A stretch of 64,000 nt of DNA, from NCBI RefSeq assembly GCF_049240005.1, contig NZ_JBMLTK010000028.1, forward strand, positions 8,773 through 72,772, written 5' to 3'. The stretch is from Flavobacterium sp. (GTDB taxonomy: Bacteria > Bacteroidota > Bacteroidia > Flavobacteriales > Flavobacteriaceae). Of the stretch, positions 4,599 to 28,342 are shown in pieces. A program made the position numbers and the translations under genes. Below the pieces are notes generated by a model. The model had not been told where the DNA came from. It worked only from the letters and a program-made list of their open reading frames with translations, and did not search any database. Within the stretch, counting starts at the first letter, position 1. Every line of letters begins with the position of its first letter.

Positions 4599-4610
4599 TG
4601 ATAATTGTCA
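4599..4610 (+). promoter_or_regulatory. candidate Crp/Fnr (FNR-type) box TGATAATTGTCA upstream of hemN
   Basis: 7 of the 8 specified bases match TGAT-N4-ATCA. It lies 23 nt upstream of a TAcaTTTG -7 box (4634-4641), which is 14 nt before the hemN ATG at 4655. Confidence 0.5.
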
Positions 4611-4654
4611 TGTTTTCATGCGATTGCCGCCGCTACATTTGCTCAAAAAAGATC

Positions 4655-6004
4655 ATGAATCTCTTTGATAAATACAACACGGCTGCACCGCGCTACACCA
4701 GTTATCCCACTGTTCCCTATTGGGATGAAACTACTTTTTCGACCGTAGTAGCTCTTGAACGCCTGCAACAACAACTCGAAACCGAAAACACGCTCAGTTT
4801 GTACATTCACTTGCCTTTTTGCGAGCGCTTGTGCACGTTTTGCGGTTGTCACAAATATATTACCAAACGCCATGAAGTCGAGCAACCTTATATAGAAGCG
4901 CTGCTTAAAGAGTGGCATCTTTACCTCGAATTATTGCCCGCAAAACCTGTTTTGAAAGAACTGCACTTGGGCGGCGGCACACCAACCTTTTTCAGTCCGT
5001 TGTCGTTAGAGCACTTGCTTACCGAAATTACCAGCTCCGTTGAAGTCGATGCAACTGCCGAACTCGGTTTCGAAGGACATCCGCATTCCACCTCCGCACA
5101 GCATTTACGCGCGTTGCGACGCTTCGGATTTACGCGCGTTAGCTTTGGCGTTCAAGATTATAACCCGCATATACAACAAGCTATAAGCCGACAGCAAACT
5201 TTTAACGAAGTAGCCAAAGTAAGTTTTATGGCGCGCGAATTAGGCTACAAAAGCGTTTCGCACGATTTGGTGTACGGACTTCCCTTTCAGTGTGAAAACG
5301 ATATCATCGACAGCATTGAAAAAACTACAATTTTACGTCCCGATCGCATTTCGTTGTACAGTTACGCACACGTGCCGTGGGTAAAAGGCACCGGACAGCG
5401 CGGTTTTAAAACGTCCGATTTGCCCGAAGGTGCTCAAAAACGCAAGCTGTACGAAATTGCGCGAGAACTGTTACTCGAAAACGATTATGTGGAAATTGGT
5501 ATGGACCATTTTGCGCTGCCCACCGACGATTTGTTTCGCGATAGTTTGTCGGGACAATTGAACCGCAATTTTATGGGCTATACCACCGCCAAAGCCGCTG
5601 TGCAACTGGGTTTGGGTGTTTCGGCTATCGGAAATTCTAAGGCGGCATTTATGCAAAACACCAAAGATTTAAAGCAGTATTATAAGTTGCTCGAAGATAA
5701 TACGTTACCGATAACTAAAGGGCATTTGCTGAGCCATGAAGATTTGTGCATACAGCAGCACATTTTAAATATCATGTGTCGGTTACAAACCACCTGGACC
5801 GACGAGCTGTTTCGGTTCATAGATTTTCAAACCTTGAAAAACAGTTTGCGCACTTTTATGTCCGATGGTTTGCTCGAGCTCACCGAAACGGGCATGCAGG
5901 TTTTAGAGGCCGGCCGACCCTTTTTGCGAAACATTTGTATGGCTTTCGATTTGCGGTTGCAGCGAAAATGGCCCGATATCAAATTGTTCTCCTCGGCAGT
6001 TTAG
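4655..6004 (+). CDS. hemN: oxygen-independent coproporphyrinogen III oxidase (radical SAM)
   Basis: MNLFDKYNTAAPRYTSYPT N-terminus, CxxxCxxC cluster (CERLCTFCGC), and GGGTPTF. I took the start at ATG 4655 because the predicted promoter lies inside the longer tracked ORF. Confidence 0.9.
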   Translation: MNLFDKYNTAAPRYTSYPTVPYWDETTFSTVVALERLQQQLETENTLSLYIHLPFCERLCTFCGCHKYITKRHEVEQPYIEALLKEWHLYLELLPAKPVLKELHLGGGTPTFFSPLSLEHLLTEITSSVEVDATAELGFEGHPHSTSAQHLRALRRFGFTRVSFGVQDYNPHIQQAISRQQTFNEVAKVSFMARELGYKSVSHDLVYGLPFQCENDIIDSIEKTTILRPDRISLYSYAHVPWVKGTGQRGFKTSDLPEGAQKRKLYEIARELLLENDYVEIGMDHFALPTDDLFRDSLSGQLNRNFMGYTTAKAAVQLGLGVSAIGNSKAAFMQNTKDLKQYYKLLEDNTLPITKGHLLSHEDLCIQQHILNIMCRLQTTWTDELFRFIDFQTLKNSLRTFMSDGLLELTETGMQVLEAGRPFLRNICMAFDLRLQRKWPDIKLFSSAV

Positions 6005-6055
6005 GATTTATTTTTTAGGGCACATCCTGCCGTGAAAAATCTGTAAGCGCGGAAT

Positions 6056-6276
6056 TAACGTGGGTTCGACCTAAAAATTTTTATTAGATCGCTTGTAATG
6101 AGTACTTTAATTATAAGAAAATAATCTTCAGGCAGGATTTTTTAAAGCTAACCATTTAAACAGTTGCTTACGGCGTTGTATTTTTTTGAGATACCTCGGT
6201 ATCCCAAAGAAAATACGCCTTGTAATCAACTATTTAAATGATTTCTAATTTCGATTTTTATATCGAACTCACGTTA
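6056..6276 (+). mobile_element. MITE-like element, copy A (~221 bp, 14-bp terminal inverted repeats)
   Basis: Left end TAACGTGGGTTCGA and right end TCGAACTCACGTTA (13/14 complementary). The right ~135 bp (6141-6276) is highly similar to 27018-27153. Confidence 0.6.
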
Positions 6277-6310
6277 TTTGCAATCCGCGCGAAAAAATCG
6301 TTTACGGCAG

Positions 6311-6440
6311 GTCGGGCTGTTCACTGCAAGGCGCACCAGCAAACGGCGTTTCAGCCGCGTGTTGGTTCGGCTTCTTGGGTCGCCGCACCGCCACGGGCTT
6401 CAATTGCCGTTTGCTGGCACGGCTTTCCGTTGCCATCCCT
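6311..6440 (+). repeat. GC-rich structured intergenic repeat (family copy G1)
   Basis: Starts gtcgggctgttcactgcaagg and ends ggctttccgttgccatccct. The ends are shared with the copies at 26788-26922 (reverse), 46818-46890 and 58388-58467. Confidence 0.5.
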
Positions 6441-6632
6441 TGTGCGGAAATGCGTGCAAAAGTGATAAAATATTGAATTTCTTGCAGTTTAACTTGACAT
6501 ACGTCTGTGTTAAAGTGATACTCGTACCATGTAGCTGAACGATCGTGCAGGCTTTTTGGGCATAGCAACGTTGCGAATAAGTACTGGTTAAACTTCAAGT
6601 TAAGTTTGAATCACAATACCATTTTAAAAAAA

Positions 6633-7466
6633 TTAAAGATTAGAAACAACCATGTTTTTATTAAACTTACCAAAAGTATTTGGTGTTTGTTTTGGATTAT
6701 ATGATTTAACCTCTTTAAAAACAAAGTCATGCAATTCTTTAATTGTTATTCGTTTATCTAAATTGAGGTCTGCCTTACCTTGCAATCCTTCAATTAAAAA
6801 ATAGCTAAAAACGCCTTGCTTTAATTGATTGTACTCTAAGCTGTATTCATTAGCTCGGGCAGCAACCATAACAGCTACCTCCACATCATTAATTTTTGTT
6901 GAATTTTGATTTAATGAACGTGATTGACTCTTGATATCTTTTGGAGTGTTTTGCTTTAGTGCTCCAGAGTGACAAGCATCGGCGAATATTAATTTTACTT
7001 GGCATTTTGCTGACTTTATAATATCTTTTAAATCAGAAAAATAAAGTAAGTTATAAGCTTTCCCTGTTTCTGGGTTGTATAATCCATCATGGGGAACAAA
7101 CGCTCCTTGTGTTCCATGCCCAGACCAAAAAAAAATTACCCGATCACCTTCTTGTGCACGTTCAAATAACTGCTTGGCATATTTTATAATGTTTGCCTTT
7201 CTTGCAGTTTCATTTTTTAATACATAGATGTTGCCAACTGGAACTTTACCTCCTTTTTCACTCTTGAGAAAACTGACAAATTTCTCAGCATCATTGACTG
7301 TCCATTTTAAATCTTTTGCGGTATTTTCATATTTGTAATCCGCTATGCCAATCACTACAGCGTAGGTGTTTTTTATCACTTTTTCATTATTATCCTGCTT
7401 GCAAGTAAAGGCCAAGAGAGAGAATACAACTAGAAATTTAAAAAATTGACATTGCAGCTTTATCAT
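6633..7466 (-). CDS. caspase-fold peptidase (Peptidase C14 family), predicted lipoprotein
   Basis: YAVVIGIADY, FFWSGHG (catalytic His) and FADACHSG (catalytic Cys). The N-terminal signal has a lipobox-like LLAFTC. Confidence 0.85.
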   Translation of the reverse strand: MIKLQCQFFKFLVVFSLLAFTCKQDNNEKVIKNTYAVVIGIADYKYENTAKDLKWTVNDAEKFVSFLKSEKGGKVPVGNIYVLKNETARKANIIKYAKQLFERAQEGDRVIFFWSGHGTQGAFVPHDGLYNPETGKAYNLLYFSDLKDIIKSAKCQVKLIFADACHSGALKQNTPKDIKSQSRSLNQNSTKINDVEVAVMVAARANEYSLEYNQLKQGVFSYFLIEGLQGKADLNLDKRITIKELHDFVFKEVKSYNPKQTPNTFGKFNKNMVVSNL

Positions 7467-7476
7467 TATGATAGAA

Positions 7477-8388
7477 TTAATGAGTAAAAAAAGTCCTTTT
7501 GAATAAAATATAAATCAGAAATACAAAAGAGATGATGAATAATACTCGCAAACCATTAAAACCAAACTTATCTCTTTTTGTTGACAATAATTCCTTTTCT
7601 TTCGAGGATTTTACTCGATTAAACACCTGCGCTATAGATAGCCATTCAATTTCATAATTATCCCCTTTGTTTATTTCATCATCAACCGCAATTTCGATAA
7701 TTATTGCTGTATTATTATCTTTTGATTCCAATTCACATTGGTTTTGAATTAGTGCAATCTTTTGCTCAACAGACTTTCTTTTGTCTACTAATGTTGTTAT
7801 TAAATCATAATCACTCCAAGCTTCGTTAACGCCATCGGTACAAAGGAAGAAAATATCTCCACTATCTACTTTGTCAATTTTAATAATTTCTGGAGTGGTG
7901 GTCTTGTTTTCTTTGTTAGCTACAATTGCCTTACTAATTCTGTTATTCATGGGGTGATGCCGACCTTCTTCTCTAGTTATTTCACCCGATTTTACTAATT
8001 CACTAACAATAGAATGATCCCAAGTGTGCCAAACTAAATTTTCTTTAGGCTTCAACCAATACAAACGACTATCACCAATATGGGCTATAAACGCATTATT
8101 TTTATTAAAAAACAAACAACAAAAAGTAGTTCCCATTCCAATAGTTTCAGGGTTTTGACCGTACCTTTCATTTAATGCTTTTTGTGCATCAACAAGCAAC
8201 TTTTCAATGTTAAGTTTGGTAATTTCAATTGGATTTTCTAAAATAAAATCCTTTATAAAATTACTAGCAACTTCTCCTTTAGTATGACCACCAACACCAT
8301 CACAAACAATAAAAGTAGTGCTGTTACTACCAAAGGCATCTTCTTGGTTAGCGCGTTTGCCCAGTTGTGAAAAAGAAATTGACTTCAT
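7477..8388 (-). CDS. PP2C-family Ser/Thr protein phosphatase with a C-terminal TM anchor
   Basis: RANQEDAFG, VCDGVGGH, HIGDSRLY, LCTDGV, DNNTAII. C-terminal helix LRVLFIISFVFLIYILF. Confidence 0.9.
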   Translation of the reverse strand: MKSISFSQLGKRANQEDAFGSNSTTFIVCDGVGGHTKGEVASNFIKDFILENPIEITKLNIEKLLVDAQKALNERYGQNPETIGMGTTFCCLFFNKNNAFIAHIGDSRLYWLKPKENLVWHTWDHSIVSELVKSGEITREEGRHHPMNNRISKAIVANKENKTTTPEIIKIDKVDSGDIFFLCTDGVNEAWSDYDLITTLVDKRKSVEQKIALIQNQCELESKDNNTAIIIEIAVDDEINKGDNYEIEWLSIAQVFNRVKSSKEKELLSTKRDKFGFNGLRVLFIISFVFLIYILFKRTFFTH

Positions 8389-8389
8389 T

Positions 8390-9436
8390 TTATTTTGGTG
8401 TTTTTATGCCAAGTCCAGCAAGCATTTCTTTTGCTTCAGCATCATTAGTAGTAGCCGCTTTTTGAAGCCAAGTAACCGCCAATGCTTTATCTTTTATAAC
8501 TCCATCACCTTGAAGATACATCTTACCTAACATTACCATCGAACTAGTATCCTTTTTATTTGCCGCCTTTAAAAACCATTCAAAAGCTAACTTATTATCT
8601 TGCTTTACTCCTATTCCATTGAGGTATAAGTTCCCTAATTCGTGCATTCCATACTTATTTCCCATTTTGGCTGACTTTTCAAACCAATAAAAAGCTTTTG
8701 AGACATCAAGAGAGGTATGTAAACCCACTTGGTAATTTCTTCCGACTTCAACCATATCTTGAGAACTATTTAAAAGAGCTGCTTTAAGCTTAAAGGCAAA
8801 CGCTTTTTCATCACTTTTGGGAACACCCTTACCTAAAGTAAACATAGCGCTTAAATTATGTAAAGCTTCAATATTATCTTGGTCAGCAGCCATCGAAAAA
8901 TAATAAAATGCCAACCTAAAATCAACCTCTTTGCCAAAACCATTGAAGTACATTTCTCCTATTTTATTCATGGCATCACTACTTTTGGATGAAGCTTGAC
9001 TGAAAAAGTCAAAAGCCTTTGGGTAGTTTTCTTCCATATAGTAAAGTAGTCCAATTCTGTATATCGCTTCTTCGGAGCCGTTATCTTTTGCTTTATTTAA
9101 ATAAGTAAGTGCTTTGGGGATGTCTTTTTTAAAATTTGAATCCCATGAATAAAATTTACCCAAAGCCAACAGAAATGAATCGTCTTGCTCTGCTATAGGC
9201 TCAATCCATTTTTGCAATTGCACTTCGTCAAACTCAAAGGTTAAATTATCTTGTAATACAATGTATGATAGTGCTGCTAAAGCTGTTTTATCTCCTTTTT
9301 CGGCTTCCGGCCATAGTTGATTGTAAGCGGCTTCGTATTGTTCTTCTAGAAAGAATTTTTTAATTTCATTTATGTTAACTTGAGAGTAGGAGTTTATTGA
9401 GAGGAGGGTTAATATAATGATTATTGTTTTTTTCAT
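8390..9436 (-). CDS. secreted Sel1-repeat (SLR/TPR-like) protein
   Basis: Signal peptide MKKTIIIILTLLSINSYSQ. Repeated units of the form A..WF.KAA..G...A...LG.MY..G.GV..D. Confidence 0.85.
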   Translation of the reverse strand: MKKTIIIILTLLSINSYSQVNINEIKKFFLEEQYEAAYNQLWPEAEKGDKTALAALSYIVLQDNLTFEFDEVQLQKWIEPIAEQDDSFLLALGKFYSWDSNFKKDIPKALTYLNKAKDNGSEEAIYRIGLLYYMEENYPKAFDFFSQASSKSSDAMNKIGEMYFNGFGKEVDFRLAFYYFSMAADQDNIEALHNLSAMFTLGKGVPKSDEKAFAFKLKAALLNSSQDMVEVGRNYQVGLHTSLDVSKAFYWFEKSAKMGNKYGMHELGNLYLNGIGVKQDNKLAFEWFLKAANKKDTSSMVMLGKMYLQGDGVIKDKALAVTWLQKAATTNDAEAKEMLAGLGIKTPK

Positions 9437-9448
9437 AACTAGTTAAAA

Positions 9449-11278
9449 TTAATTATGTGGTAAAGTTGGGGAAAATCGATCAACATCTTTTTTTGCAGGT
9501 TCATATCCATTAATATATGCTTTATTATAATATTCATATGCCATAGCATCACTTTGATCTAAATAGTATCCATTTTCATACATTAAACCAATATTATAAA
9601 AGCTTTCTTTGGTATTAGCATCTTTAAAGAATTCATATGCTTTTTGATAATTTTTTTGCTCTAAAAAGCATAATCCAATATAATTTAAGGCATCAAATTG
9701 ATTTTCTGCATTATAAGTTATTGATGAAGCAAATAATTTTTTTGCTTCTTCATAATCTTTTAATTCAAAATAACATACTCCTAAATAGTAATTTAATTCT
9801 CTTGATTTTTCTTGATCTTTTTCTATTGCCAACCTATACCTAATAATTGCTGACTTGTATTCACCCTTGTCAAAATAAGAATTCGCTTCTTTTATAATTG
9901 ATTGTATTGAATTGATTGAGTCATACTTTTTATCAACATAGGATTTTGTTATAGATTCAGGAATGATTTCAACATCATCTGAGGTATTGTCCTTGTATAT
10001 CTTTATGATAGAAGAGAGTAGAATTATAAAAAAAACCGTTCCAAAAATGTACAAAAAAACTTTAAACTCCTCTTTTCTGTAGTATAAAATTTTTGTTTCG
10101 ACCGATTTAATATTAGATTTTTCATCTTTTACACTAACTTTATAAGTACCTGGATTTAAGTTTAGAAAAGTTTTTTCAGTAGTATATTTACCATCATTTA
10201 TTGAATATGTAAAATTTTTGCCTAGTGGGTAAAGAATTTCAATTGAACCTGTTTTCTTTCCTTTTTGAGGATGTGTCGTTTTAACTAAAGGGGTTTCAAT
10301 TTTATTGTATTTAACAGTTTCTTCAACTACAGTTTCTTCATTTTTTATTAAAATTTCTTTTTTTTGTTCATTTTTAAAAATAATATCTAATAACTCATCA
10401 GCAGTTTTAACCCTATAATTAGGATCTCTTACGAGACATTTTTCGGCTATTTTTTGCCATCTTTTCGGGAGTTCTTCAATATTTTCAGAGATTTTTTCAT
10501 TCAAAATTTTATCTCCTATACCTTGTCTTGAAACAGACGTATTATTTTTTGGTGTAGAATTGAATAGTGATTTACCTGTAAAAAGTTCATATATAATAAC
10601 ACCATAAGCCCATAAGTCAGTGTTATAATAAATTTTTGTATCTCCTTTAATTTGTTCGGGAGAACTATATTCTACTGTACCACCTTGTACACTATTTTCA
10701 ATGAAACTTTCAACTTCTTGATTTACAATTTTAGACAAACCAAAATCTGTAATCAATGGTGTAATTAATCTTCTTTTTTCATCATAATGTATAAGTATGT
10801 TTGAAGGTTTTAAATCACGGTGTATTCTATTGTTTTTATGTAGAAACGACAGTCCTTTTAAAATATCTACTGCAATATTTTCTTTATCATCAAAAGATAA
10901 TTCTTTTTGTAATTCTTTTCCTTTTTCGTGTTCTTCTTCATAACTAACACCATTAAGTTTTATTAATTTACTTAAGTTACCATAAGGGTAATATTCCATA
11001 ATGATATAATCGTATTCACCATGATCTGTCTTAATATTTATTACATCTTTATAATAAGCTATATTATCGTTTGGAGATAAATCCTTTATGACTTTGAATT
11101 CTTCTTCTAAGGAATATTTCTTACCATCGATAAATTTTACCTCAGAACGTTTAATAGCATATTGATAGTTATCTCTATCATTGTATTTTGCCTTAAAGAC
11201 AACAGAAAAAGCCCCATTTCCTCTGAAATCTTTTTCAATATCAAATTTGTATAGTTGTCTTAACTGTTCGTAATTCAT
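9449..11278 (-). CDS. membrane Ser/Thr protein kinase with extracytoplasmic TPR/Sel1-like repeats
   Basis: GNGAFSVVFKA..YAIKR, HRDLKPSNIL, DFGLSK, SSPEQ. TM helix FLYIFGTVFFIILLSSIIKIY, then TPR/Sel1-like repeats. Confidence 0.9.
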   Translation of the reverse strand: MNYEQLRQLYKFDIEKDFRGNGAFSVVFKAKYNDRDNYQYAIKRSEVKFIDGKKYSLEEEFKVIKDLSPNDNIAYYKDVINIKTDHGEYDYIIMEYYPYGNLSKLIKLNGVSYEEEHEKGKELQKELSFDDKENIAVDILKGLSFLHKNNRIHRDLKPSNILIHYDEKRRLITPLITDFGLSKIVNQEVESFIENSVQGGTVEYSSPEQIKGDTKIYYNTDLWAYGVIIYELFTGKSLFNSTPKNNTSVSRQGIGDKILNEKISENIEELPKRWQKIAEKCLVRDPNYRVKTADELLDIIFKNEQKKEILIKNEETVVEETVKYNKIETPLVKTTHPQKGKKTGSIEILYPLGKNFTYSINDGKYTTEKTFLNLNPGTYKVSVKDEKSNIKSVETKILYYRKEEFKVFLYIFGTVFFIILLSSIIKIYKDNTSDDVEIIPESITKSYVDKKYDSINSIQSIIKEANSYFDKGEYKSAIIRYRLAIEKDQEKSRELNYYLGVCYFELKDYEEAKKLFASSITYNAENQFDALNYIGLCFLEQKNYQKAYEFFKDANTKESFYNIGLMYENGYYLDQSDAMAYEYYNKAYINGYEPAKKDVDRFSPTLPHN

Positions 11279-11302
11279 GTCATGAATTTAAATTATTATA
11301 AA

Positions 11303-12973
11303 CTATTTTAATTTAACTGTACCTGATTGCTCTTGAAAACCATAAACTTCTTTTGTTTCTTCATTATAGTAATTGTGTTCATTTATTTTGTACGATCCAA
11401 CCATTCCTTTATTTGTAATTTCAACAATCAATTTAAATGGAACTAGAGTTGGGTTTTTAAATCCACTTCCTTTTGTACCCAAATTTATAACGCCATTAAA
11501 TTCAATTTGTTTGTTAGATGATTTAGGTTTTACCTTATAGTTATAGCTATTCAAATCCCAAGTTCCAAATAAATTTTTATTATCCGTATTTCCGGTAATT
11601 CTATATGACCCATCAGTATTTTTAGTTAATTTCATAAAACATTTGGTTGTTTTATTTACAGTAGCGTTATAGATTACTCCTTCAAAATTCCTCGGTAAAT
11701 TTGAGTTTGTTAATCTGTCGAAATTATCACTTAAATTTGAATCATTGTTTAAATTTTTACTGACTTTACGAGATTCTATGGAGTCTAGTTTATTTAAACT
11801 ATCTTTTCTCTGATTGATCACATTTTTACTTTTTTCTTCAAAAAAGTCTCTATTATAAACATCTTTTGACGGCTGCTTCTCTTGTGTTGGTCCTAAATTA
11901 TTTTTACTTTCTATATTATTCCATATGATGAGAGATAACAGAATTACACTTACTAGTAGTAAAACATATTTTAAGAATTTGAAGTCATTTTTTTTTGGGT
12001 TTGTGAATGATTTGTTTTGAACCACATCTAAAATAGTCGATTGATTTTTTTGATGAGTTTCACTTTTATTAATTTCATAACTCCTATCAGGATTTTCAAT
12101 AATCTTTAATAATGTAGTTGTTGATTTTATTCTTTCATTTGGGTCTTTAATGAGGCATAATTTAGCAATATTTCTCCATATTGGTGGGAGTTCATTTAGT
12201 TTATCTGAAATATTTAAATTTACTATTTGGTTAAAAATTTCTACATCATTACTATGACTTCCTGTATGCGATGTTGTATTACTAAATAATTGTTTTCCTG
12301 TAAAAATCTCGTATATAATTACTCCATATGCCCAAAGATCAGAATTGAATCTAATTTCATTATTTTTAAGTTGTTCAGGTGAGCTATATCCCAATGTTCC
12401 ACCACTAAAACTATTGTTTATTAAACTGTTTTTGTTATTCATTGCTTTTTTAGAAAGCCCAAAATCAGTTATTAATGGTATAATGATTCTATCTTTTGCT
12501 TTACCATAAACATGAATAAGAATGTTTGAAGGCTTTAAGTCCCTATGAATAATGTTGTTAGCATGTAAAAAATCTATACCTTTAAGTAGCTGGATAGCAA
12601 TGCTTTCTTTTTCTTGATTGTTCAGTTTTTCACTTTTTATTATGTTATCTAAATTACCATCCTTATAAAACTGTAAGATTGCATAATCAAAAATACCTTG
12701 TTGTGTTTCAAAAGTAAACACATATTCATAGTTGGCTATGTTAGGATGACTCCCTAGATTCTCTAGGGCTTTAAACTCATCTTTTAATGAAAACTCTCTA
12801 CCATCAATTATTTTTACTTCAGAAACCTTTATGGCAACTTCTCGATGTAAAACAGTGTCAAGGGCTTTGTAGACTTTTCCAAAAGCACCATTACCGATTA
12901 AGTCGGTTTTGATGTTGTAATGAAATCGTTTAAAAAAATCGTCGATTGTTTTGATTTGATTGTATTTTGACAT
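11303..12973 (-). CDS. membrane Ser/Thr protein kinase (paralog) with a distinct beta-rich C-terminal domain
   Basis: GNGAFGKVYKA..VAIKV, HRDLKPSNIL, DFGLSK, SSPEQ. TM helix YVLLLVSVILLSLIIW, followed by an uncharacterised C-terminal domain of ~210 aa. Confidence 0.9.
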   Translation of the reverse strand: MSKYNQIKTIDDFFKRFHYNIKTDLIGNGAFGKVYKALDTVLHREVAIKVSEVKIIDGREFSLKDEFKALENLGSHPNIANYEYVFTFETQQGIFDYAILQFYKDGNLDNIIKSEKLNNQEKESIAIQLLKGIDFLHANNIIHRDLKPSNILIHVYGKAKDRIIIPLITDFGLSKKAMNNKNSLINNSFSGGTLGYSSPEQLKNNEIRFNSDLWAYGVIIYEIFTGKQLFSNTTSHTGSHSNDVEIFNQIVNLNISDKLNELPPIWRNIAKLCLIKDPNERIKSTTTLLKIIENPDRSYEINKSETHQKNQSTILDVVQNKSFTNPKKNDFKFLKYVLLLVSVILLSLIIWNNIESKNNLGPTQEKQPSKDVYNRDFFEEKSKNVINQRKDSLNKLDSIESRKVSKNLNNDSNLSDNFDRLTNSNLPRNFEGVIYNATVNKTTKCFMKLTKNTDGSYRITGNTDNKNLFGTWDLNSYNYKVKPKSSNKQIEFNGVINLGTKGSGFKNPTLVPFKLIVEITNKGMVGSYKINEHNYYNEETKEVYGFQEQSGTVKLK

Positions 12974-12984
12974 TTTCTCTCGGA

Positions 12985-13545
12985 TTATTGATTTTCCTGT
13001 AAAAAACTTATTACCTGAGCCACTTTTTCAGCTTGATCATTTTCACTTATGGCAAACTCAAGAGTCTCATTTCTTTCAAGCTCTTCATAACTAATCTCTC
13101 CATCACCATAATACGTGATTCTTCCTTTTGTTTGATGCAATTGTTTGCCGTTTTCAGTTGTGAAACTTGGATAGGCATACCAACTAGATAGGAATACAAA
13201 TTTTACACTTTGAGTGGCAGCATTATATTCTGTTTCTGAATCAATAATTTCATAAGTAGGATTTTCGCCTGAAAAAAAGGAAACTGCCTTCATGTATTTT
13301 TTTGTGAATTCTGCGATAGAAGCCTCAGCCATAATTCTTTTTCTTTCAATAGCTTCTCTTTTAAGTTCTTCTTGAACTGCTGCAATCGAATCTTGTTTGG
13401 CCTGATAAATACTGTCTTGAACTCTTTGGTATTCCTCTTGAGTAATTACAGAATCAACCTCGGATTGAATTGTTTGGTCTTGTTCTTTTTTTATACAGGA
13501 CGTAAAAATGGATGCCATGATTAGTATTAAGACTATATTTTTCAT
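12985..13545 (-). CDS. lipoprotein of unknown function
   Basis: Signal peptide plus lipobox (IFTSC), a Q/E-rich coiled-coil-like stretch, then a globular C-terminus. There is an 11-nt gap to the kinase gene. Confidence 0.7.
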   Translation of the reverse strand: MKNIVLILIMASIFTSCIKKEQDQTIQSEVDSVITQEEYQRVQDSIYQAKQDSIAAVQEELKREAIERKRIMAEASIAEFTKKYMKAVSFFSGENPTYEIIDSETEYNAATQSVKFVFLSSWYAYPSFTTENGKQLHQTKGRITYYGDGEISYEELERNETLEFAISENDQAEKVAQVISFLQENQ

Positions 13546-13566
13546 AATTTTTAGTTTTAAAATGGT

Positions 13567-14283
13567 TTACAGAATTGTTACTTGAATTATCGTTCTACCT
13601 AATCGGATTTTATCATTGTTTTGAAGTACAATTATTTCATTTCTAGACTTGTCTTCAAAGGTCTTTAGCTTTTCTTCATTTATAAAAGTATGGTTTAAAC
13701 TACCATTATCCTGAATTGAAAAAGTATTGTTCTTGTCGTTACGCTTAATAAGAGCATGGGCTCTTGACATCATAGTGTCTTCCGTTTCAATGGCAATATC
13801 GGGTTGGATTGTTGTATTGTTTTTTCTGCCAATTGTCAAGAAAGGTTGTGAAATTTCAAAATGCTGCTCTTTGTTATTTTCAGAAGCTAAAACTAACAAG
13901 GAGAGTTTTTTTTCTGTTTGATTAACACTTCCTACTTTGGTTTTATTGGTTACTGCATTTCCATTTGAAGTATCATTTGCAACAGGTACAGTTAAAAACA
14001 TCATCTTTTTGCAATGAAAACACTTGTTTTTGATGCTTTTACCTTCTGAACCTTCGGTAGTTACGATGGTATTTTCTTTATTGCAAAAAGAACAATTTTC
14101 TTTGAATATTACTTTCTTCATAGTACTTGTTTTTGAATCTTGAATAGTTTTTATCAATCCTATTCGATGGTTACAATTGGAGCAAGTGAATTGCAATGAA
14201 TTCCATTCTTCTTGATTATTAGGTAAATTAGATATCCCGATAGATATGTCACAATTTGGACACTTAAAAAGTTGCTTTTCCAT
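13567..14283 (-). CDS. double zinc-ribbon + FHA domain protein
   Basis: Four CxxC pairs (CPNC, CSNC, CSFC, CFHC). C-terminal FHA signature LTIGRKNN...MSRAHALIKR...IQDNGSLNHTFINEEKL. Confidence 0.8.
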   Translation of the reverse strand: MEKQLFKCPNCDISIGISNLPNNQEEWNSLQFTCSNCNHRIGLIKTIQDSKTSTMKKVIFKENCSFCNKENTIVTTEGSEGKSIKNKCFHCKKMMFLTVPVANDTSNGNAVTNKTKVGSVNQTEKKLSLLVLASENNKEQHFEISQPFLTIGRKNNTTIQPDIAIETEDTMMSRAHALIKRNDKNNTFSIQDNGSLNHTFINEEKLKTFEDKSRNEIIVLQNNDKIRLGRTIIQVTIL

Positions 14284-14288
14284 AATGA

Positions 14289-15269
14289 CTAGCTGTAAAA
14301 TCCATCAATCGAGTCATCATTACTGATGTTATTATCTGCTTCATCATTCAAATTTCCTTGAAGGTCGTTTTCATCAAGTTCATCAGCTTCGGTATCTTCT
14401 TGATCATCTTCATTTTGATCGTCCTTTCCCTCATAATCCTCATCATCAGCACCTTGACCAATACTTATAGGTCCTCCAATAGGAAGCACTTCACCTGTCA
14501 TTGTATAAGCAGCTCCAAATTGAATTTCATTGCCAACAACATTCACATCCATCAATATAATATCTGCATCTCCATCAAAATTGGTGTCCAAAACGAGGTC
14601 ATGAATTTCATTACCATTCGCATCTACAAGAAAGATATCTGGCTTTCCATCATTATTGCTATCGAGCTCTTTGATGATTTTTTGTTCAAAATCATGGTCT
14701 AATTCATCAATTATTTCATACTTTACTGGTTCTGGTTCATTTCCACCTGGTTCTGGTTCGTCAATTGGACTATTCATAGGAATTGTAACACTTGAATCAA
14801 CTTCTTGTATTTGCGTAGTTTCCTCATCAATCGATTGCCAATATTCTTGATGCTGTTCAACAGTCATACTATTCCATTCTTCTTTGGTGTAGGTATTGTA
14901 TAATTTCCCTTGGTATTCAAAAAAACCACCGGGTCCAACTTCTTCTCGAGCAGTTGCGTAAGCGTTTTCAAAATCCATAGCATCAGTCACCGATTTTGCA
15001 AAAGGTGCCTCTGTACAAATAACCACAGCATCATCAGAAACTTCATTATCATTGGAATCAGGAGTTGGATCTGTTGGCTTCACAATTTTATTATTGGATT
15101 TAGAGATAAATCCCATTAAAGCAAATGCCCCAGCTCCTATTGCAATCCCCGCTAAACCAATCTCTGTTTTAAGAAGTGTATCTTTTTGAATTTTTGATAA
15201 TCCCCTTAAAACAATATTCCCTTTACTTTTGGGTTGTTCGTTGTTTCTATTATCAATTGTCGTTTCCAT
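14289..15269 (-). CDS. single-pass membrane protein with a highly acidic C-terminal region and DxDxDG-like calcium-binding loops
   Basis: TM helix IGLAGIAIGAGAFALMGFI. Loops DSNNDGKPD and DTNFDGDAD. Long D/E-rich tail. Confidence 0.7.
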   Translation of the reverse strand: METTIDNRNNEQPKSKGNIVLRGLSKIQKDTLLKTEIGLAGIAIGAGAFALMGFISKSNNKIVKPTDPTPDSNDNEVSDDAVVICTEAPFAKSVTDAMDFENAYATAREEVGPGGFFEYQGKLYNTYTKEEWNSMTVEQHQEYWQSIDEETTQIQEVDSSVTIPMNSPIDEPEPGGNEPEPVKYEIIDELDHDFEQKIIKELDSNNDGKPDIFLVDANGNEIHDLVLDTNFDGDADIILMDVNVVGNEIQFGAAYTMTGEVLPIGGPISIGQGADDEDYEGKDDQNEDDQEDTEADELDENDLQGNLNDEADNNISNDDSIDGFYS

Positions 15270-15367
15270 GATTTTGCTATTTATTTTGTTTTACAGTGTA
15301 AAGGTGCAATGGATATGCTTTGAGTTTTAATAAATTGTACGAAATCAATTGTTGGCTGTACAAAACC

Positions 15368-16039
15368 TTATTTATTATAAATTGCACCGCATTTTTTTGG
15401 ACAGACTTTATTCTTTTTCAGTTTTAACCATGAGTAATTTTCATCATGAATTGGAAAAATATAATCGCATTTAGGATTTGGACAGTTATACTTAGCTATA
15501 AAGTCATGTTTTTTGTTTTCAAATTTTTTTGAAATTAAGTACACATAAATAACTATGGTTGCACTTAAACAAGAGATAATTAGAGAAACTGCATTTAGAA
15601 TTCCTTCTTCACTGAAGTAAGCTTTTGAAACACCTATTAATCCTATAAATGGTATACAAATAGATTGCAAACTTCTTAATTCTCTAATTTTTTTACTTTT
15701 CTTTTTATACGTTTCATAAATAATTTTTCTTTGATCAAACTCTTCTGAATAATCAGTTTTGTTTTCATTTAAAATAGTAGTATAACGCTCGACTATTTCA
15801 CCTAAATCAACAATATATTTAGTTTCTACCCCTAAAGTTATTTTATCCTCCACGGTGACTATTTTACTAACAATAGGGTTGCCATTGACATAAGTCCCGT
15901 TTGTTGAATTCAAGTCTTGCAATAAAATTTCTCCGTTGTCAATAATTATTTTAGCATGAACTCTGCTCACTGATGAAAATTCTCCTGGTACTAATAGTGT
16001 GTTTTCACCCGTTACTTCTCTTCCTATCAAAAATTCCAT
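15368..16039 (-). CDS. FHA domain - two TM - zinc-ribbon protein
   Basis: N-terminal FHA LIGRE...SRVHAKIIIDNGEILLQDLNSTNGTYVNGNPI, two hydrophobic helices, and C-terminal CPNPKC...CPKKC. Confidence 0.8.
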   Translation of the reverse strand: MEFLIGREVTGENTLLVPGEFSSVSRVHAKIIIDNGEILLQDLNSTNGTYVNGNPIVSKIVTVEDKITLGVETKYIVDLGEIVERYTTILNENKTDYSEEFDQRKIIYETYKKKSKKIRELRSLQSICIPFIGLIGVSKAYFSEEGILNAVSLIISCLSATIVIYVYLISKKFENKKHDFIAKYNCPNPKCDYIFPIHDENYSWLKLKKNKVCPKKCGAIYNK

Positions 16040-16041
16040 GT

Positions 16042-16731
16042 TTATTCTGGTGTTTCTTCGTAATTAATTTTTGCTGTTTCCCACATTAATCGTTTTATGA
16101 GATAAGGGAATTGTTTATTGTATTTTGGAAATTCCAATATTGCACCATTGCTAAACTGAATTTGTTTTCCTTTAATGGTTTTGATCATATTCAAGTTCAA
16201 GATGATACTTTTTCCAAAGCGTTCAATAAACTCCATCGATATAAAGTAAGATTCTAACTCTTTTAACTTTTTAGAGACAACCAGTTTTGAATGATCATCA
16301 AAGTAAATTTCTGAATAATTGCCACTCCCTTTTATATAAGTAATCGTATTGGGATTAATATAATCTCTAGATTGAAGGGATGGAATTTCTATTTTTTGGA
16401 CAAATAAATGAGCATTATTGATTAAGAATTTATCGAATCCAGACTTTAAGTCGTTTTTCCAGTCATGTGCATCAATATCCACAAAGTAAGCTGCATTAAT
16501 TTTCCAAGCTAGCTTGGCAACCTTTGGAGATTTTGATAAAATGAAAAGCGGCGCTTGAAATGCAAGCAGTTGCTCTCGTATCTGTTTTCGCTCTTCTTTA
16601 CTTTCATCTTGAGCATGAAAAAAAACTACGCTTTCAGGTAATATAACCTTAGTAGCATATGCTAAACCATTTAATTTATTTTTGATTTCCAAGACCTTGT
16701 GTGCCTCTATGTTTCTGAAGATAAGCTGCAT
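16042..16731 (-). CDS. LytTR-family DNA-binding regulator with a degenerate receiver-like N-domain
   Basis: The C-terminus ITYIKGSGNYSEIYFDDHSKLVVSKKLKELE fits LytTR. The N-domain is REC-sized but lacks the acidic DD pocket (it starts MQLIFRNIEA). Confidence 0.8.
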   Translation of the reverse strand: MQLIFRNIEAHKVLEIKNKLNGLAYATKVILPESVVFFHAQDESKEERKQIREQLLAFQAPLFILSKSPKVAKLAWKINAAYFVDIDAHDWKNDLKSGFDKFLINNAHLFVQKIEIPSLQSRDYINPNTITYIKGSGNYSEIYFDDHSKLVVSKKLKELESYFISMEFIERFGKSIILNLNMIKTIKGKQIQFSNGAILEFPKYNKQFPYLIKRLMWETAKINYEETPE

Positions 16732-16748
16732 GTAAGAATTGTTTTAAA

Positions 16749-16756
16749 CAAATCTA
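16749..16756 (-). promoter_or_regulatory. candidate Bacteroidota -7 promoter box (TAGATTTG on the minus strand) for the LytTR-led operon
   Basis: The plus strand reads caaatcta, 17 nt upstream of the ATG at 16731, and matches TAnnTTTG. Confidence 0.3.
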
Positions 16757-17457
16757 AAAATTTATCTTTTTCTTTCTTTATTTAAGTTGAAAAACAATGA
16801 ATTAGCTTATCAGTTCTTAATATTTGAAAGTAATTTTTTTATTTCAAAACAACTAGGGTCTAAGATTCTTTATAACTTAAAATAGTTGCTATTTTAACTT
16901 TAGTAATTGTGAAAATACTAGAGTTGTTTTGTTCCTATTCTCTTATTAAATTTAGGATAATTTAAAAATTATTAATTGAAATAAGGTCTATTGTTCTATC
17001 TTCTGCGTGTTTACCTTTATTGGATATTTTGGTAAGTCTTTGGCAAGAGTCGAAACTTTCAACTGTTTTGTGACCTTCTTGAAAAGATTTCTCAAAAGAA
17101 AATTTATGTTTTAAAAGTCGCAAAAAGGTGAGTAAAAGTTGAATGCAAAGGGACATTGTTTTTGTTAGCTGACAACTAAAAAAGACTGCCAACAGTTTGA
17201 GCGCCTTATTGTATTAATTGGCTCTGTTGATGTTTTTTCAAAATTTCTTCAAAGTATAAAAGAAGCTCTATTATAATGTAAGAATAGGGTATACATTCTG
17301 AATTTGCATCTATAAATCCGTGCTTCTAGTGAAGTACACCTTGTTGTAATGCTAAATTTAATGTGCATGTAAATTGAAAAATAGTACTTGACAGATTTTA
17401 AATTTCTGTTTTCAAATTCCTCACTTTCCAAATCAGTTCTAGCTTGCTTTCTCTGAA

Positions 17458-17916
17458 CTAAACATTCAAATCCAGTTGTCGGTTTTCGGCGGCGGCTTTT
17501 TCGTCTTTTACATGTCCGATTGCAAAGCCTATCGACATACCAAACGGAAATCCTAAACCGAGCAGGCCCATATTGTTGGCCACAGTACCAATAGCAACGC
17601 CAATCGGTATGCCAAAGGCGCTCATGCCAAAAAGTGTAAACAATACGCGGTAATGATTTTTTGGCACCCATTTGAGCTCTTTTTTTACCTGTTGCAAAAT
17701 TTGCGCCTGACTTTTAGCGATGAGTCTTAGTAACTGATTTTCGGGCAATACCGCAGCATTAATGCGTTCGATGTGCTCGTTTACAAAGGCCTCAGTGCTT
17801 TCGGGCATTGCGCGTTTACTGAGCTCGCTGAGTAATTTCTCGAAAACGGCAACCGCTTTTATTGCTTTTACACTTAGGTTTTCGCGGTTTCGGACTTGAA
17901 GAGGTTTCAATGACAT
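17458..17916 (-). CDS. hypothetical membrane protein (core-like GC)
   Basis: 152 aa. Helical N-terminal half and glycine-rich TM region GIPIGVAIGTVANNMGLLGLGFPFGMSIGFAIG. Its GC is visibly higher than both flanks. Confidence 0.6.
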   Translation of the reverse strand: MSLKPLQVRNRENLSVKAIKAVAVFEKLLSELSKRAMPESTEAFVNEHIERINAAVLPENQLLRLIAKSQAQILQQVKKELKWVPKNHYRVLFTLFGMSAFGIPIGVAIGTVANNMGLLGLGFPFGMSIGFAIGHVKDEKAAAENRQLDLNV

Positions 17917-18161
17917 GGCAATTACGGTTTAGGGTTGGGTTTGGCGTAAAGATACGAACCTGAGTTTTATTAAAAATTAACCTAAGTTCATTGATTCCAA
18001 CATATTAAGTTTAGCGTGATCTAGTTTACTTAGCCAAATGCATAAATTGCCAGTTAATTCATTTGACTTCCTTGTTGTACTCTAGTTTCTGATATAATGC
18101 CTGCCTCTAAATAGGTTATCTACTTCTTTTCTGACATCAATTTGTATTCAAATTTATATCA

Positions 18162-21100
18162 TTAAGTATTAGAATGATTTTCAACAGCGATAATAACTTC
18201 ATTTTTTTGATTATTTATTTTGGTTAATATTGTATCTAAATAGTCATCGCCAAAATGGTTTCTAATCCAATTAATTTCGCTAGTAAATGCTTTGACTTCT
18301 TTTTCACTTGAATGGAAGTCGATTTTTTTTCTGCCTAATCTACCAAGAGTTCTTACTGATAAAGTATGATACTTTTTTATGTCTTTTATTAGCATTCTAA
18401 CAAATTTTGCTAAGCTTTCTTCACTTCCTGACAGTATTTTTAAGTACACGTTTAAATTTTCAAGAGCTTTTGCTTCTAATGCAATATCACTTCTACCTAT
18501 TTTATAATTTGGCTTGAATGATTTAATTTTTTCATAATTAATCCAAAAGTCTTTTGAAAGCGGCAACTTAATTTCGTTAAATTCACACTGAGTGTTTAAT
18601 AACAAATCGTCAAAAGTTACTTCTTTGATGTTAGTATAACCTTCCTCTTCTTTTTCAATAATTTGCGCGAAAAGACTTAATCCTTTTTTTCTTAAGACAT
18701 TTAGTTGATAGTTGTCCGTTTTTTTAGCTGATTTTACTCTTGTTGGTAAATTGCTTATTTTCTTTATTAATTCTGGATATTGTGTTTCTATTTCATTATA
18801 GATATTTCTAATATGTGTTGATGTATTAATCCCGCCACTTTCATCTGGATTTTGATTTAGTTTAAAGTAGAGACCTGACGCTGTTGGTTCCTCTTCTTCA
18901 TCAAATATTTTAGCATCTTCACCTAACGAACTATGAATTAAATACATTTTTTGAGCTGCTATTTCTCTTGATTTTACTATATCAGCTCCTATTTCCGAGG
19001 GAAAAAAGTTATAAATGTGTAGTTCGTCAAATACTTTCGCTCCAATACGATTAATACGACCTACTCTTTGAATAACTCTTGTTGGATTCCAAGGAATATC
19101 GTAATTGATAATTACGCCTGCACGATTTAAATTGAACCCTTCAGATAGTTTATCACTCGTTAATAATATGTCGAAATGATTGGTTTGTCCGTCTTTTCTT
19201 TGCGCATTGAAATCTGAATTCAGACTTTTAGCCAATTCTTTTGAAACCTTACCATCACAAACTAATAATCGCATTCCGAATTTCTCACGGAAATATGGCT
19301 CTAAATGTTTAATAGTATCAACATATTCTGAAAACAATATGACTTTTCTGTTTTTGTCTTTTTCTAAAATAGATTGTATTTCATTTGCTATACGTTCTCT
19401 TTTTGGGTCGTTTTCTACAATTTTTAGTTTTTTTAGTTGGCTTTGAATTTCTTGAAAAACTAAAATATCACTTTCAATATGTTCCAAAAATTCAGTCCTT
19501 CTTTGGAAATCATTAATATCATAAACAGTATTGTTTTTTGGAACTTTTTTATTTAATAAATCTTTAGAATATTCGCTTAAAATTCTATCAATATCGTCTT
19601 CATCATATGACTTAATTTTATCAATTAAACCTCTGTCTAATATGTATTTGCCATTAGACTTTTCAATGAAATCACGTACTAAAATATGCACTTGTAAAAA
19701 ACGATCTATTGATTGACTAAATGCCCCAAATGAACTTTCGAAACGCTTTACTAATAAGCGTCTCATGAAGTCAAATAAGTTTTGCTGTTGTTGGAATTGT
19801 CTGTTGCCTTGTTCGTCTAGTTGATCCTCGTCTACAATTTTTTCATAACTGAAAGGTTGATAGATTGCTCCTTTGAATCTGCCGTTTTCTTCAAAGTATT
19901 CATTTAATATTCTGTCATAAAATGTATTTTGTTCATGTGATAAATGATAAAATAATTCAACAGGGTCTTTAACGGTAGATAAATCACCAACCTCTGCTTT
20001 ATAAACGTAATCTTCTTTTAAATCTAATCGATTTCTTCTAATTACTACAGAGGAAATTATACTCTTGATTTGATTTGCCAATAATTTAGTTTCATGTCTT
20101 ACCACATTAACGTCTATGGGTAATTCCTTAGCTAGCATGGTGCGATATAATGTTTCTGCTTTTTGACGCTTAGCCGGTTTGTTAGAATTCCAGTTTTTGA
20201 TTATGTCTGAAAGACGTTTGTATTTATAATTGAATGCTCTGAATAAACCTTCTAAGTTATCATCAATTGTGATACCTGATTTACCAGGTACAATAAATAG
20301 TTTTAATAATGAAAATATATCCGCGGGTGAATTATTGAATGGTGTAGCTGTCAATAAAATTACGGTTCTGTCTCTACAGATGGTAAGTAAAGATTCATAA
20401 TCTGCGGAATCTTGATTCCTAAAATAATGTGCTTCGTCGACAATAACAACTTTAATTCCTTTTGTTTGAATTGTATCTGCTAAATCTTCTAATTTTCCTC
20501 TACTTTCTACTTCCCAATCATACAATTTAAATTCATTAATATAACCCCACCAACCTGTATTGTATGTTTTATCACCCATTAATCCTGGAGGACAAATAAC
20601 CATTCCTCTTTTGCCTAAGTTTTTAGCTATTAGAGAGGCAATTACTGATTTCCCCAAACCTACCACATCGGCAATAATAACTCCGTTGTATTCCTCAATA
20701 ATAGATAATGCTTGGTTTACTGCATCGGTTTGATAGCTGTATTTTTTATATCCAATTTCTTCCAGAAGATTTTCTACTTCGGGTTTTATTTGTTTTTGTT
20801 GTTGTAGGTCTAAATAGGTTTTTAGAATCAAGACATAAGCTTCAAAAGGAGTTACTGAAGCTGCTTGCGATTTGTGCTGAATGAATTGTATCAAAAACTC
20901 TTTTCTGTTTTCGATTTCTGAAATTGGAATAGCTCGTTCCCAAAGTTCATCAAAATAGTTTTCAGCTTCGGTAAAACCATAATCTTTTATTTCTACATTG
21001 AATTCTTCCTGACCCGATAATCCTGCACGCGTTAAGTTACTACTACCTGTAATAAACTGCCCTATCATTGCTTGTATTTCTGCCTGTTCTTGGTTTAAAC

Positions 21101-21521: not shown

Positions 21522-21593
21522 TCTTTTAGTTACGTTTATTCACTTATCTATTTTTTAAAATATTGATATGTTTTGTTTTCTTGTGTTAGTCAA

Positions 21594-22046: not shown

Positions 22047-22049
22047 ACC

Positions 22050-26922: not shown

Positions 26923-26933
26923 AGCCGCATAAA

Positions 26934-27886: not shown

Positions 27887-27887
27887 C

Positions 27888-28331: not shown

Positions 28332-28342
28332 AAGTTTAGTTT

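Follow-up and report, generated by a model that had tools for sequence, protein, structure and literature searches.

To our knowledge, signalling by Hanks-type kinases is almost unstudied in Bacteroidota, a phylum which dominates the human gut and includes oral pathogens. In Pseudomonas, PpkA-PppA-Fha1-TagQRST make up the Thr-phosphorylation pathway of the H1 type VI secretion system (H1-T6SS), and in Actinobacteria the fhaA-fhaB-pstP-rodA-pbpA-pknA-pknB cluster, linked to rodA and pbpA, is universal and essential. The LytTR regulatory systems (LRS) HdrRM and BrsRM of Streptococcus mutans use direct repeats of about 9–11 bp with a spacer of 11–12 bp (PMC6193735). Phosphorylation of a LytTR regulator by a Hanks-type kinase has a precedent in the action of Stk1 on AlgR (PMC11197903), and the conflict systems compiled by Kaur et al. 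(2020) are built on STAND, vWA-MoxR or GTPase NTPases, with mostly inactive kinases (PMC7159879). The locus described here is a block of ten open reading frames (ORFs), g1–g10, on the minus strand at positions 6633–16731 of a 64,000-nt stretch of Flavobacterium sp. DNA (RefSeq assembly GCF_049240005.1, contig NZ_JBMLTK010000028.1, positions 8,773–72,772; this whole stretch is called the window). On balance, and with modest confidence, we read the cassette which contains it as an accessory system, specific to Bacteroidota, which relays Ser/Thr phospho-signals across the envelope and amplifies itself.

The gene block and its recurrence

The block contains the following genes and sites, given in window positions; protein topology was called by hydropathy scans of the protein sequences (TM, transmembrane segment; aa, amino acids).

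16042–16731, minus strand: g1, regulator with an Asp-less receiver-like N-domain (residues 2–105) and a LytTR DNA-binding domain
15368–16039, minus strand: g2, FHA domain, 2-TM hairpin and C-terminal Cys4 zinc ribbon; membrane partner adjoining the LytTR gene
15270–15367, minus strand: g2–g3 spacer of 98 nt, with the operator and the probable promoter of the g3–g10 unit
15336–15365, minus strand: LytTR-type operator, direct repeats TTTTGTACA (15357–15365) and TTTCGTACA (15336–15344) with a 12-bp spacer
14289–15269, minus strand: g3 (product G3), the system-defining single-pass membrane protein
13567–14283, minus strand: g4, soluble FHA-domain protein containing four CxxC motifs
12985–13545, minus strand: g5, probable lipoprotein, a clade-specific accessory
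11303–12973, minus strand: g6, bitopic Ser/Thr kinase of the Hanks type; its periplasmic domain (about 205 aa) has no family assignment
9449–11278, minus strand: g7, bitopic Ser/Thr kinase paralogous to g6, with a periplasmic TPR/Sel1-like domain
8390–9436, minus strand: g8, secreted Sel1-repeat protein, a variable accessory
7477–8388, minus strand: g9, PP2C phosphatase with a C-terminal membrane anchor
6633–7466, minus strand: g10, exported caspase-fold protease (C14, metacaspase-like)

An earlier note, made from the sequence alone, had described ten tightly packed genes on one strand, and the ORF coordinates agree (gaps from g1 to g10 of 2, 98, 5, 21, 11, 24, 12, 1 and 10 nt). The domains it had claimed for g1, g2, g4 and g6–g10 were all found by Pfam, which assigned no family to g3 and g5, and the motifs HRDLKPSN, DFGLS, SGHG and DACHSG are present in the block. 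Its view of writer, eraser, readers, transcriptional output and protease as encoded together is borne out by a coherent, co-inherited phospho-signalling unit. The single ten-gene operon which it had proposed has to be given up, because a conserved LytTR operator and a probable promoter fill the 98-nt gap; the block is probably composed of two units, the regulator pair g1-g2 and a g3–g10 unit whose expression is predicted to depend on the LytTR protein.

Chance does not account for the arrangement, as about 80 independent loci contain the same set of genes. When 185,579 species genomes were scanned with the invariant G3 peptide [AT]ARxEVGPGG, 150 G3 relatives were confirmed and 79 loci returned, and the neighbourhoods of six G3 homologues contained the same gene set at differing genomic sites. 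The co-occurrence anticipated in the earlier note thus extends far beyond this genome, and the cassette is patchily distributed (carried by 150 of these species genomes, with an empty site in a related strain), unlike a universal core locus.

According to iterated hidden Markov models (HMMs) built from the ten window proteins, the conserved core typically has the order LytTR, FHA-TM, G3, (caspase), FHA, PP2C, kinase(s). Gene frequencies were derived from the 35 loci with at least 8 kb on either side of G3, hereafter called complete: the g4-type FHA protein (FHA4) occurs in 35/35, a kinase in 33/35, PP2C in 32/35, the FHA-TM protein (FHA2) in 30/35, the caspase in 25/35, LytTR in at least 19/35, Sel1 in 6/35 and the g5 lipoprotein in 1/35. 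The adjacent pairs FHA4-PP2C, FHA2-G3 and Lyt-FHA2 were observed 62, 44 and 33 times, respectively. The core consists of six or seven genes; of the ten-gene composition proposed as a unit, this part stands, while the g5 lipoprotein and the Sel1 protein are clade-specific. LytTR and caspase are not strictly obligatory, as the former was found in 19 and the latter was absent from 10 of the 35 complete loci. Only the closest relatives show the ten genes in exactly the order of the window: L003/L009, from a Flavobacterium metagenome-assembled genome (MAG) with 49% G3 identity, and L001/L002, with 77% G3 identity, the latter with a single kinase gene and a second Sel1-repeat gene in the place of the other kinase.

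Synteny of the core spans Flavobacteriia, Saprospiria, Cytophagia and Bacteroidia. Carriers are found among Flavobacterium, Saprospiraceae, Spirosomataceae (Larkinella, Runella, Emticicia), Bacteroides, Prevotella/Segatella copri, Leyella, Alistipes, Muribaculaceae, Paludibacter and Lentimicrobiaceae. Three contigs are labelled otherwise, one belonging to an unclassified "uncultured bacterium" MAG and two to Firmicutes-labelled MAGs; the latter two are probably mis-binned, since their gene content is of the Bacteroidales type. The block represents a recurrent, unannotated system which is present in Segatella copri, Prevotella intermedia, Alistipes, Bacteroides and Muribaculaceae as well as in environmental Bacteroidota.

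Signalling proteins and a proposed mechanism

The marker protein G3 is a new protein family without a Pfam or PDB fold match. Searches with g3 gave no match in Pfam, NCBIfam or PADLOC, and its AlphaFold2 (AF2) model, with a core at residues 80–160 predicted at a local distance difference test score (pLDDT) of about 85, found no fold in the PDB at E≤0.001 with Foldseek. A word index of 5.8 billion proteins yielded 56 homologues, and the profile built from them matched 2,344 clusters at 50% identity (E≤1e-3) among 1.84 billion representatives. From its N- to its C-terminus, the protein consists of a cytoplasmic N-tail that bears a Thr motif, a single TM, a conserved domain in the periplasm, repeats of the DxDxDG type and an acidic tail, and it carries the invariant motif AR.EVGPGG.F...TY..EW. 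The N-tail motif N-E-E-T-[IV]-[YLIF]-D, often repeated, occurs in 38 of 70 tails as compared to 2.8 expected. FHA ligands of the ETTS type are known in GarA and OdhI, and by analogy with these the Thr motif of the G3 tail would be the leading candidate for a kinase site. The C-termini of G3 (14289–14330 in the window) are conserved and acidic-aromatic, with N.D[VM]SD[YWF] in environmental clades and DY[VMI]NDA in Bacteroidales. The SD[YWF] tail was present in 6 of 8 Sel1-positive and in 12 of 59 Sel1-negative loci, a suggestive association which is not relied on here; the G3 tail may interact with the repeat protein.

The regulator encoded by g1 contains a LytTR domain (PF04397; E 1.6e-5, 25.5 bits, cut-off 22.6). 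Its AF2 model (pLDDT 73) matched full-length ComE (4cbv, receiver plus LytTR) with a Foldseek E of 2.6e-9 and the LytTR domain 3d6w with 2.5e-4, and the receiver domains of ComE and CheY were matched as well. Comparison of the g1 family with CheY by hhalign gave no significant match, and a sequence search of the PDB nothing useful. In the receiver-like half, the acidic pair is missing after strand b1, and an invariant Ser66 closes strand b3. With the acceptor site assigned by the secondary-structure register of the model, Ser66 could occupy the position of the phospho-acceptor Asp and might be a direct target of the Ser/Thr kinases. The predicted arrangement would offer a natural example of a LytTR regulator coupled to Ser/Thr phosphorylation, with the acceptor Asp lost from its receiver-like domain. 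The full-length two-domain form is rare (5 database members); the LytTR protein of most relatives is stand-alone and about 125 aa long.

The adjoining g2 protein has an FHA domain (Pfam, 1.3e-14) and two predicted TMs (121–137 and 153–169), and its Cys4 ribbon tail is kept in 55/59 family members. Among the FHA residues, G (65/65), S (61/65) and H (64/65) are well conserved in the g2 family, but R is found in 40/65. In the g4 family, the phosphothreonine-binding residues are conserved throughout (G 76/77, R 72/77, S 73/77, H 72/77, N 72/77); g4 itself matches the FHA family with 1.2e-12, and its CxxC motifs start at residues 8, 34, 64 and 88.

The operator has the consensus TTTYRTACA-N12-TTTYRTACA and begins two nt past the g2 stop codon. 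An exact match occurs at one site only in the 64-kb window, and the same repeat pair fills the spacer between the FHA-TM and G3 genes in distant loci, many of which have kept a spacer of about 85–155 nt with the operator. When 87 loci (1.36 Mb) were searched with up to 2 mismatches allowed, 25 of 35 matches preceded a G3 gene of the same strand by 45–100 nt. The operator is present in 17/32 LytTR-positive and 2/29 LytTR-negative loci, as compared to 6 of 2000 random windows (0.3%). In many relatives, a Bacteroidetes -7 box (TAnnTTTG) follows downstream of the operator, e.g. TATCTTTGCA, and from the sequence of the 98-nt spacer we infer promoter activity. A scan for sigma-70 promoters and terminators remained at the level of shuffled sequence and was uninformative, as expected for AT-rich Bacteroidota DNA; an Rfam scan of positions 5900–27300 gave no RNA family.

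Four Larkinella loci (L012, L029, L033, L048) lack both LytTR and the TTTYRTACA operator, and their FHA-G3 spacer contains another conserved sequence. Downstream of the caspase gene they code for a protein of 195–205 aa with a weak, sub-cut-off match to Sigma70_r4_2 (23 bits), and they also carry a small acidic partner of about 160 aa. Replacement of LytTR and operator by a sigma-70 region-4-like protein would fit an exchangeable transcriptional output.

Both kinase genes code for proteins with an active-site inventory. The Pkinase domain (PF00069) of g6 was detected with 4e-48, with GxGxFG, VAIK, HRD, DFG and SPE motifs and a TM at 333–351; that of g7 was detected with 2.8e-44, with a TM at 407–425 and TPR families at residues 463–560. 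Among 128 cluster kinases, the catalytic Lys and Asp are each kept in 125 and the DFG motif in 127. These kinases (loci L001–L087) are mostly of the non-RD type, with HLD at the HRD position in 83/128; both window kinases are RD. The phosphatase g9 (PP2C_2, 5.6e-9; TM 277–295) belongs to a family in which the metal-binding residues D17, D30, D106, D185 and D224 are kept in 70/70 members. It is not an orthologue of Stp1/IreP, since its score against the NCBIfam equivalog model is 161 bits, below the cut-off of 230.

This set of proteins calls to mind a regulator of cell-envelope growth and division, i.e., a Bacteroidota counterpart of the actinobacterial fhaA–pknB cluster. The parts run parallel (a membrane FHA protein, a second FHA protein, a membrane PP2C and two bitopic kinases), FhaB/FipA is the best NCBIfam match of g2 (3.1e-9), and in Prevotella intermedia (L006; GCA_002794335, PGGD01000001.1) the cluster is immediately followed by a gene for a 1370-aa FtsW/RodA-transpeptidase fusion. 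We nevertheless consider such a role distinctly improbable: the cassette is accessory and not universal, Pfam detected no PASTA domains, the score of g2 against FhaB (37 bits) is far below the 125-bit cut-off, LytTR, G3 and caspase have no counterpart in the actinobacterial cluster, and only 1 of about 80 loci lies beside peptidoglycan synthase genes. The L006 cluster also carries a second PP2C gene, and its layout echoes actinobacterial pstP-rodA-pbpA.

Proteins with predicted N-terminal export signals (signal or lipoprotein-like peptides) are g5, g8 and g10. The N-terminus of g5 reads MKNIVLILIMASIFTSC; the protein has no Pfam family, and homologues were found only in the closest loci L001, L002, L003 and L009. 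For g8, Sel1 repeats were detected across 5 stretches (1.1e-49) behind the signal peptide MKKTIIIILTLLSINSYSQ. The role of the Sel1 protein is filled elsewhere by a BspA-type LRR protein of about 350 aa (21 loci) or a secreted coiled-coil protein of about 130 aa (20 loci), and in further clades by SBBP beta-propeller or TPR proteins, so that Sel1, LRR_5, SBBP propeller and TPR proteins are interchangeable as periplasmic partners of the sensor type. Proteins with FGE-sulfatase domains and kinase ectodomains of the WG_beta_rep type are found repeatedly within or next to the clusters (L023, L007 and several flanks), where they might serve as additional ligand-binding modules. In L002, which is closest to the window cassette, the caspase gene is followed by a gene (10376–11212) for a 278-aa protein with a PA-IL-like (galactophilic lectin) domain (6.3e-5), which has no counterpart in the window.

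Non-RD kinases are typical of pattern-recognition receptor signalling in plants and animals. The cassette might accordingly be thought of as a counterpart of receptor-kinase innate immunity, in which LRR, Sel1, TPR and beta-propeller sensors, mostly non-RD kinases, FHA adaptors and an exported metacaspase detect an attack on the envelope, with a protective or suicidal outcome amplified by LytTR; we regard this as doubtful. If true, the cues would be phage adsorption or injection, or contact-dependent or secreted antibacterial weapons, and the cassette would represent a new class of envelope-surveillance defence that is common in gut Bacteroidales.

The g10 protein belongs to Peptidase_C14 (PF00656, 2.9e-23), its nearest solved relatives being plant metacaspase-4 and -9 (E 3e-5). 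His117, Cys165 and Asp163 of the DxCHSG motif are each kept in 55/55 homologues. An N-terminal hydrophobic signal peptide directly ahead of strand b1 was found in 58/58 homologues, and the caspase-fold protease is thus predicted to be exported; a protease of this fold acting in the periplasm as part of a signalling pathway would be unusual. The caspases associated with gasdermins and type III CRISPR systems, which the earlier note had adduced as precedents, are cytoplasmic, and because the g10 protease is exported these analogies are weak. That note had also allowed that the catalytic residues might fail on proper alignment, but they are kept across the homologues.

Metacaspases are linked with cell death in other lineages as a matter of general knowledge. 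Regulated self-lysis or developmental death, with the exported caspase degrading envelope proteins once the kinase/LytTR loop fires, would also agree with the strict conservation of the catalytic dyad and with the position of g10 inside the LytTR-controlled unit, where positive feedback would raise the caspase dose. Such a function is highly improbable in view of the persistence of the remaining core in complete loci which have no caspase; moreover, no immunity or inhibitor gene is evident, and Pfam found no holin, lysin or toxin domains in the cassette.

Returning to the trans-envelope phospho-signalling system that we favour, the predicted topologies place the repeat- or beta-rich ectodomains of the kinases, the Sel1 protein, the lipoprotein, the G3 ectodomain and the caspase-fold protease in the periplasm, and the kinase domains, the tail-anchored PP2C, the membrane and soluble FHA proteins and the LytTR regulator at the cytoplasmic face. 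An envelope or extracellular cue would alter the periplasmic complex, and the exported metacaspase-like protease, probably specific for Arg/Lys, would clip a periplasmic partner, resulting in an irreversible signal. The kinases would then phosphorylate threonines, with the G3-tail motif as foremost candidate, and the two FHA proteins would read the phosphothreonine sites. The LytTR regulator, held or controlled by its adjoining FHA membrane partner as in LRS, would be freed or activated and bind to TTTYRTACA-N12-TTTYRTACA, driving expression of g3–g10 in a positive feedback. PP2C would reset the system. Testable handles are provided by the G3 marker family, the predicted operator with the probable promoter, the candidate phospho-acceptor motif and the predicted location of the caspase.

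Several points weigh against this proposal. The caspase is missing from 10/35 complete loci, and LytTR was detected in only 19/35, although the sensitivity of the HMM is uncertain. The -7-like element of the window itself (cAccTTTa) is imperfect. Operators were seen only within the clusters, so that no effector regulon emerges. We infer the sequence of events, the substrates and the sign of regulation. Finally, the cassette is AT-rich, polymorphic between strains and located beside defence-type genes in the window, L001-L002 and L004-L005, properties which would also fit a role in conflict.

Genomic setting and the question of a conflict role

Over about 6–26 kb of the window, the G+C content is 0.26–0.33, as compared to 0.40–0.45 outside. 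This island is bounded by hemN (4610–6004) and by the cbb3-assembly genes ccoG and fixH together with a DsbD_2-family gene (27188–29764). It includes the following segments besides the gene block.

6462–17457, no strand assigned: extent of the accessory cassette (insertion A, 10,996 nt), from comparison with the empty-site contig L092
17458–17916, minus strand: 152-aa ORF with a hydrophobic, Gly-rich C-terminal half; no Pfam or PADLOC match
18162–26455, minus strand: neighbouring module with PLD+SNF2 helicase, Fic/DOC, ORF6N and type IIG-like methylase genes

L092, a metagenome contig of a related strain, contains window positions 5534–6461 (91% identity), 97 nt, 17458–17975 (93%), 49 nt and 26766–26999 (95%) in succession. 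Since it lacks each separately, the cassette (6462–17457) and the helicase/Fic/ORF6N/methylase module (17976–26765) are two independent insertions, and one mobile island uniting the cassette with the restriction-modification (R-M) module is ruled out. The AT-rich island beside an R-M-like module noted earlier is thus correct as to composition and adjacency, the module having arrived as a separate insertion. Being conserved in the empty-site contig with 93% identity at the nucleotide level, the 152-aa ORF is resident and outside both insertions. Within the cassette, neither an integrase nor a transposase was seen. Carriage by phages was rejected, as a G3 relative occurs on 1 of 2.9 million viral contigs.

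The neighbouring module looks like a composite defence cassette in its own right: its Fic/DOC protein matches the PADLOC candidate model PDC-M59B (2.2e-31), ORF6N matches PDC-M59A (1.9e-116), the methylase scores 2e-85, and the helicase is HKD+Snf2/DrmD-like.

An imperfect direct repeat of about 138 bp (6139–6276 and 27017–27153; 90–91% identical, spacing 20,877 nt) brackets the AT-rich island. As the element is also present on six small metagenome contigs (L088–L093), it is either a repeat dispersed among intergenic regions or the flank of a hotspot. A G+C-rich segment (6277–6461; ORF 6302–6598, minus strand) lies between hemN and the cassette, and weaker copies of it (72–77% identity) stand beside the 138-bp element on the metagenome contigs L091 and L093; the segment could be a gene remnant or belong to a more extensive dispersed repeat.

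Anti-phage or abortive-infection defence, in which envelope sensing of an infection fires the kinases and the caspase or another part kills or arrests the cell, is a reading to which several of these features lend themselves. In the window, the cassette is an AT-rich presence/absence polymorphism at a variable hotspot that also took up the R-M-like module, and in the two nearest clades it lies beside GmrSD/WYL/QueC (L001) or type IIG R-M, FokI, RhuM and pAgo genes (L004). The spread is patchy, the extracytoplasmic sensor domains are diverse, and similarity is seen between the kinases and the models for Mad6, PD-T4-6, MkoA and Stk2 and between the caspase and a PADLOC caspase model. The resemblance of the kinases is generic Pkinase similarity: no match at system level was obtained with PADLOC, the components in PADLOC-DB v2 gave only generic kinase, caspase and PP2C matches and none that were credible for g1–g5 and g8, and the NCBIfam MAD6 scores are 126–133 bits as compared to a cut-off of 460. 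Only about 5–6 of 143 immediate flanking genes (about 75 loci) match defence models at E≤1e-10, the rest being diverse housekeeping genes, and a general defence role is therefore not supported. Further points against defence are the separate insertion of the R-M-like neighbour, the export of the caspase, which sets it apart from known defence caspases, a dedicated output in the form of a transcription factor that would act on the cassette itself, and the near-absence of G3 relatives from viral contigs. The G+C content of the cluster equals that of the flanks in most loci (median difference -0.007; more than 0.03 lower in 14/56 loci), and the system appears for this reason to be a long-standing resident of the phylum with occasional transfer. 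Taken as a whole, a defence function seems rather unlikely to us. If phage, competitors or host cues prove to be what the system senses, it would have a bearing on fitness differences between strains in the microbiome.

Comparison with described systems

The composition was not recognised by the earlier note as that of any named system, and indeed no PADLOC, NCBIfam or Pfam model recognises the system. Full-text searches of a literature library, itself incomplete, retrieved no published description of the cluster. The Kaur 2020 conflict systems and a paper on the YARHG domain were considered as prior descriptions and discarded, as the architectures differ. The systems of Kaur et al. (PMC7159879) share caspases, TPR/Sel1 and FGE-sulfatase-like domains and occasional FHA and kinase domains with the clusters described here, but the present cassette has no NTPase of their kind, and its kinases are predicted to be active by their conserved residues.

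Kinase- and caspase-containing defence systems (Stk2, PD-T4-6, MADS Mad6, Mokosh MkoA and the gasdermin- and type III CRISPR-associated caspases) are similar in having active Hanks kinase domains or a C14-fold protease, and the position of the window cassette at a variable hotspot is a further likeness. The similarity is limited to generic domains, however: the partner genes of those systems are absent, with no gasdermin, Cas or SAVED domains found in the cassette by Pfam and PADLOC, and the caspase is exported.

The H1-T6SS pathway of Pseudomonas likewise has a PP2C and an FHA reader alongside a bitopic Hanks kinase that carries a periplasmic domain, and its periplasmic and lipoprotein accessories sense an envelope cue. 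In contrast, no T6SS genes occur in the window or the loci, the TagH model TIGR03354 scores 21–22 bits as compared to a cut-off of 120, the output here is transcriptional, and there are two FHA proteins, G3 and an exported caspase. In the actinobacterial cluster, too, genes for two bitopic kinases and a membrane PP2C stand together with those for two FHA proteins, of which one is membrane-anchored. The Bacteroidota cassette differs from it in being accessory, in the lack of PASTA domains, in the additional LytTR, G3 and caspase genes, and in that a peptidoglycan synthase gene adjoins one locus only.

In Pseudomonas aeruginosa, a Hanks-type kinase controls a LytTR-family regulator via Ser phosphorylation, as would be the case here, but AlgR is a response regulator of the canonical type which has its own histidine kinase, and Stk1 is not linked to it (PMC11197903), whereas the present kinases and regulator are encoded together and FHA readers would intervene. 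The LRS resemble the cassette in that a LytTR gene adjoins a membrane-protein gene, that a repeat-pair operator of matching geometry (repeats of about 9–11 bp, spacer of 11–12 bp) is located just upstream of the controlled promoter, and in their self-regulatory logic. The partner is different, as g2, an FHA-2TM-Zn-ribbon protein adjacent to the LytTR gene in 33 loci, has no DUF2154 domain and no similarity to HdrM or BrsM according to Pfam; moreover, the operator precedes the g3–g10 unit and not the gene of the regulator itself, and the Hanks kinases, PP2C and caspase that are coupled here are not part of LRS.

The operators of AgrA and ComE show the same geometry of 9-bp repeats and a 12-bp spacer. 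The two direct repeats of about 9 bp predicted here conform to it, and the g1 model matches full-length ComE; unlike regulators of the AgrA/ComE type, g1 has neither an acidic pocket nor an acceptor Asp, Pfam detected no histidine kinase in the cassette, and in most loci the LytTR protein stands alone. While each of these groups has defining features which are lacking here, the cassette combines features of LytTR systems, AgrA/ComE regulators and FHA/PP2C/kinase modules, and constitutes a real and conserved signalling system which has apparently been undescribed hitherto.

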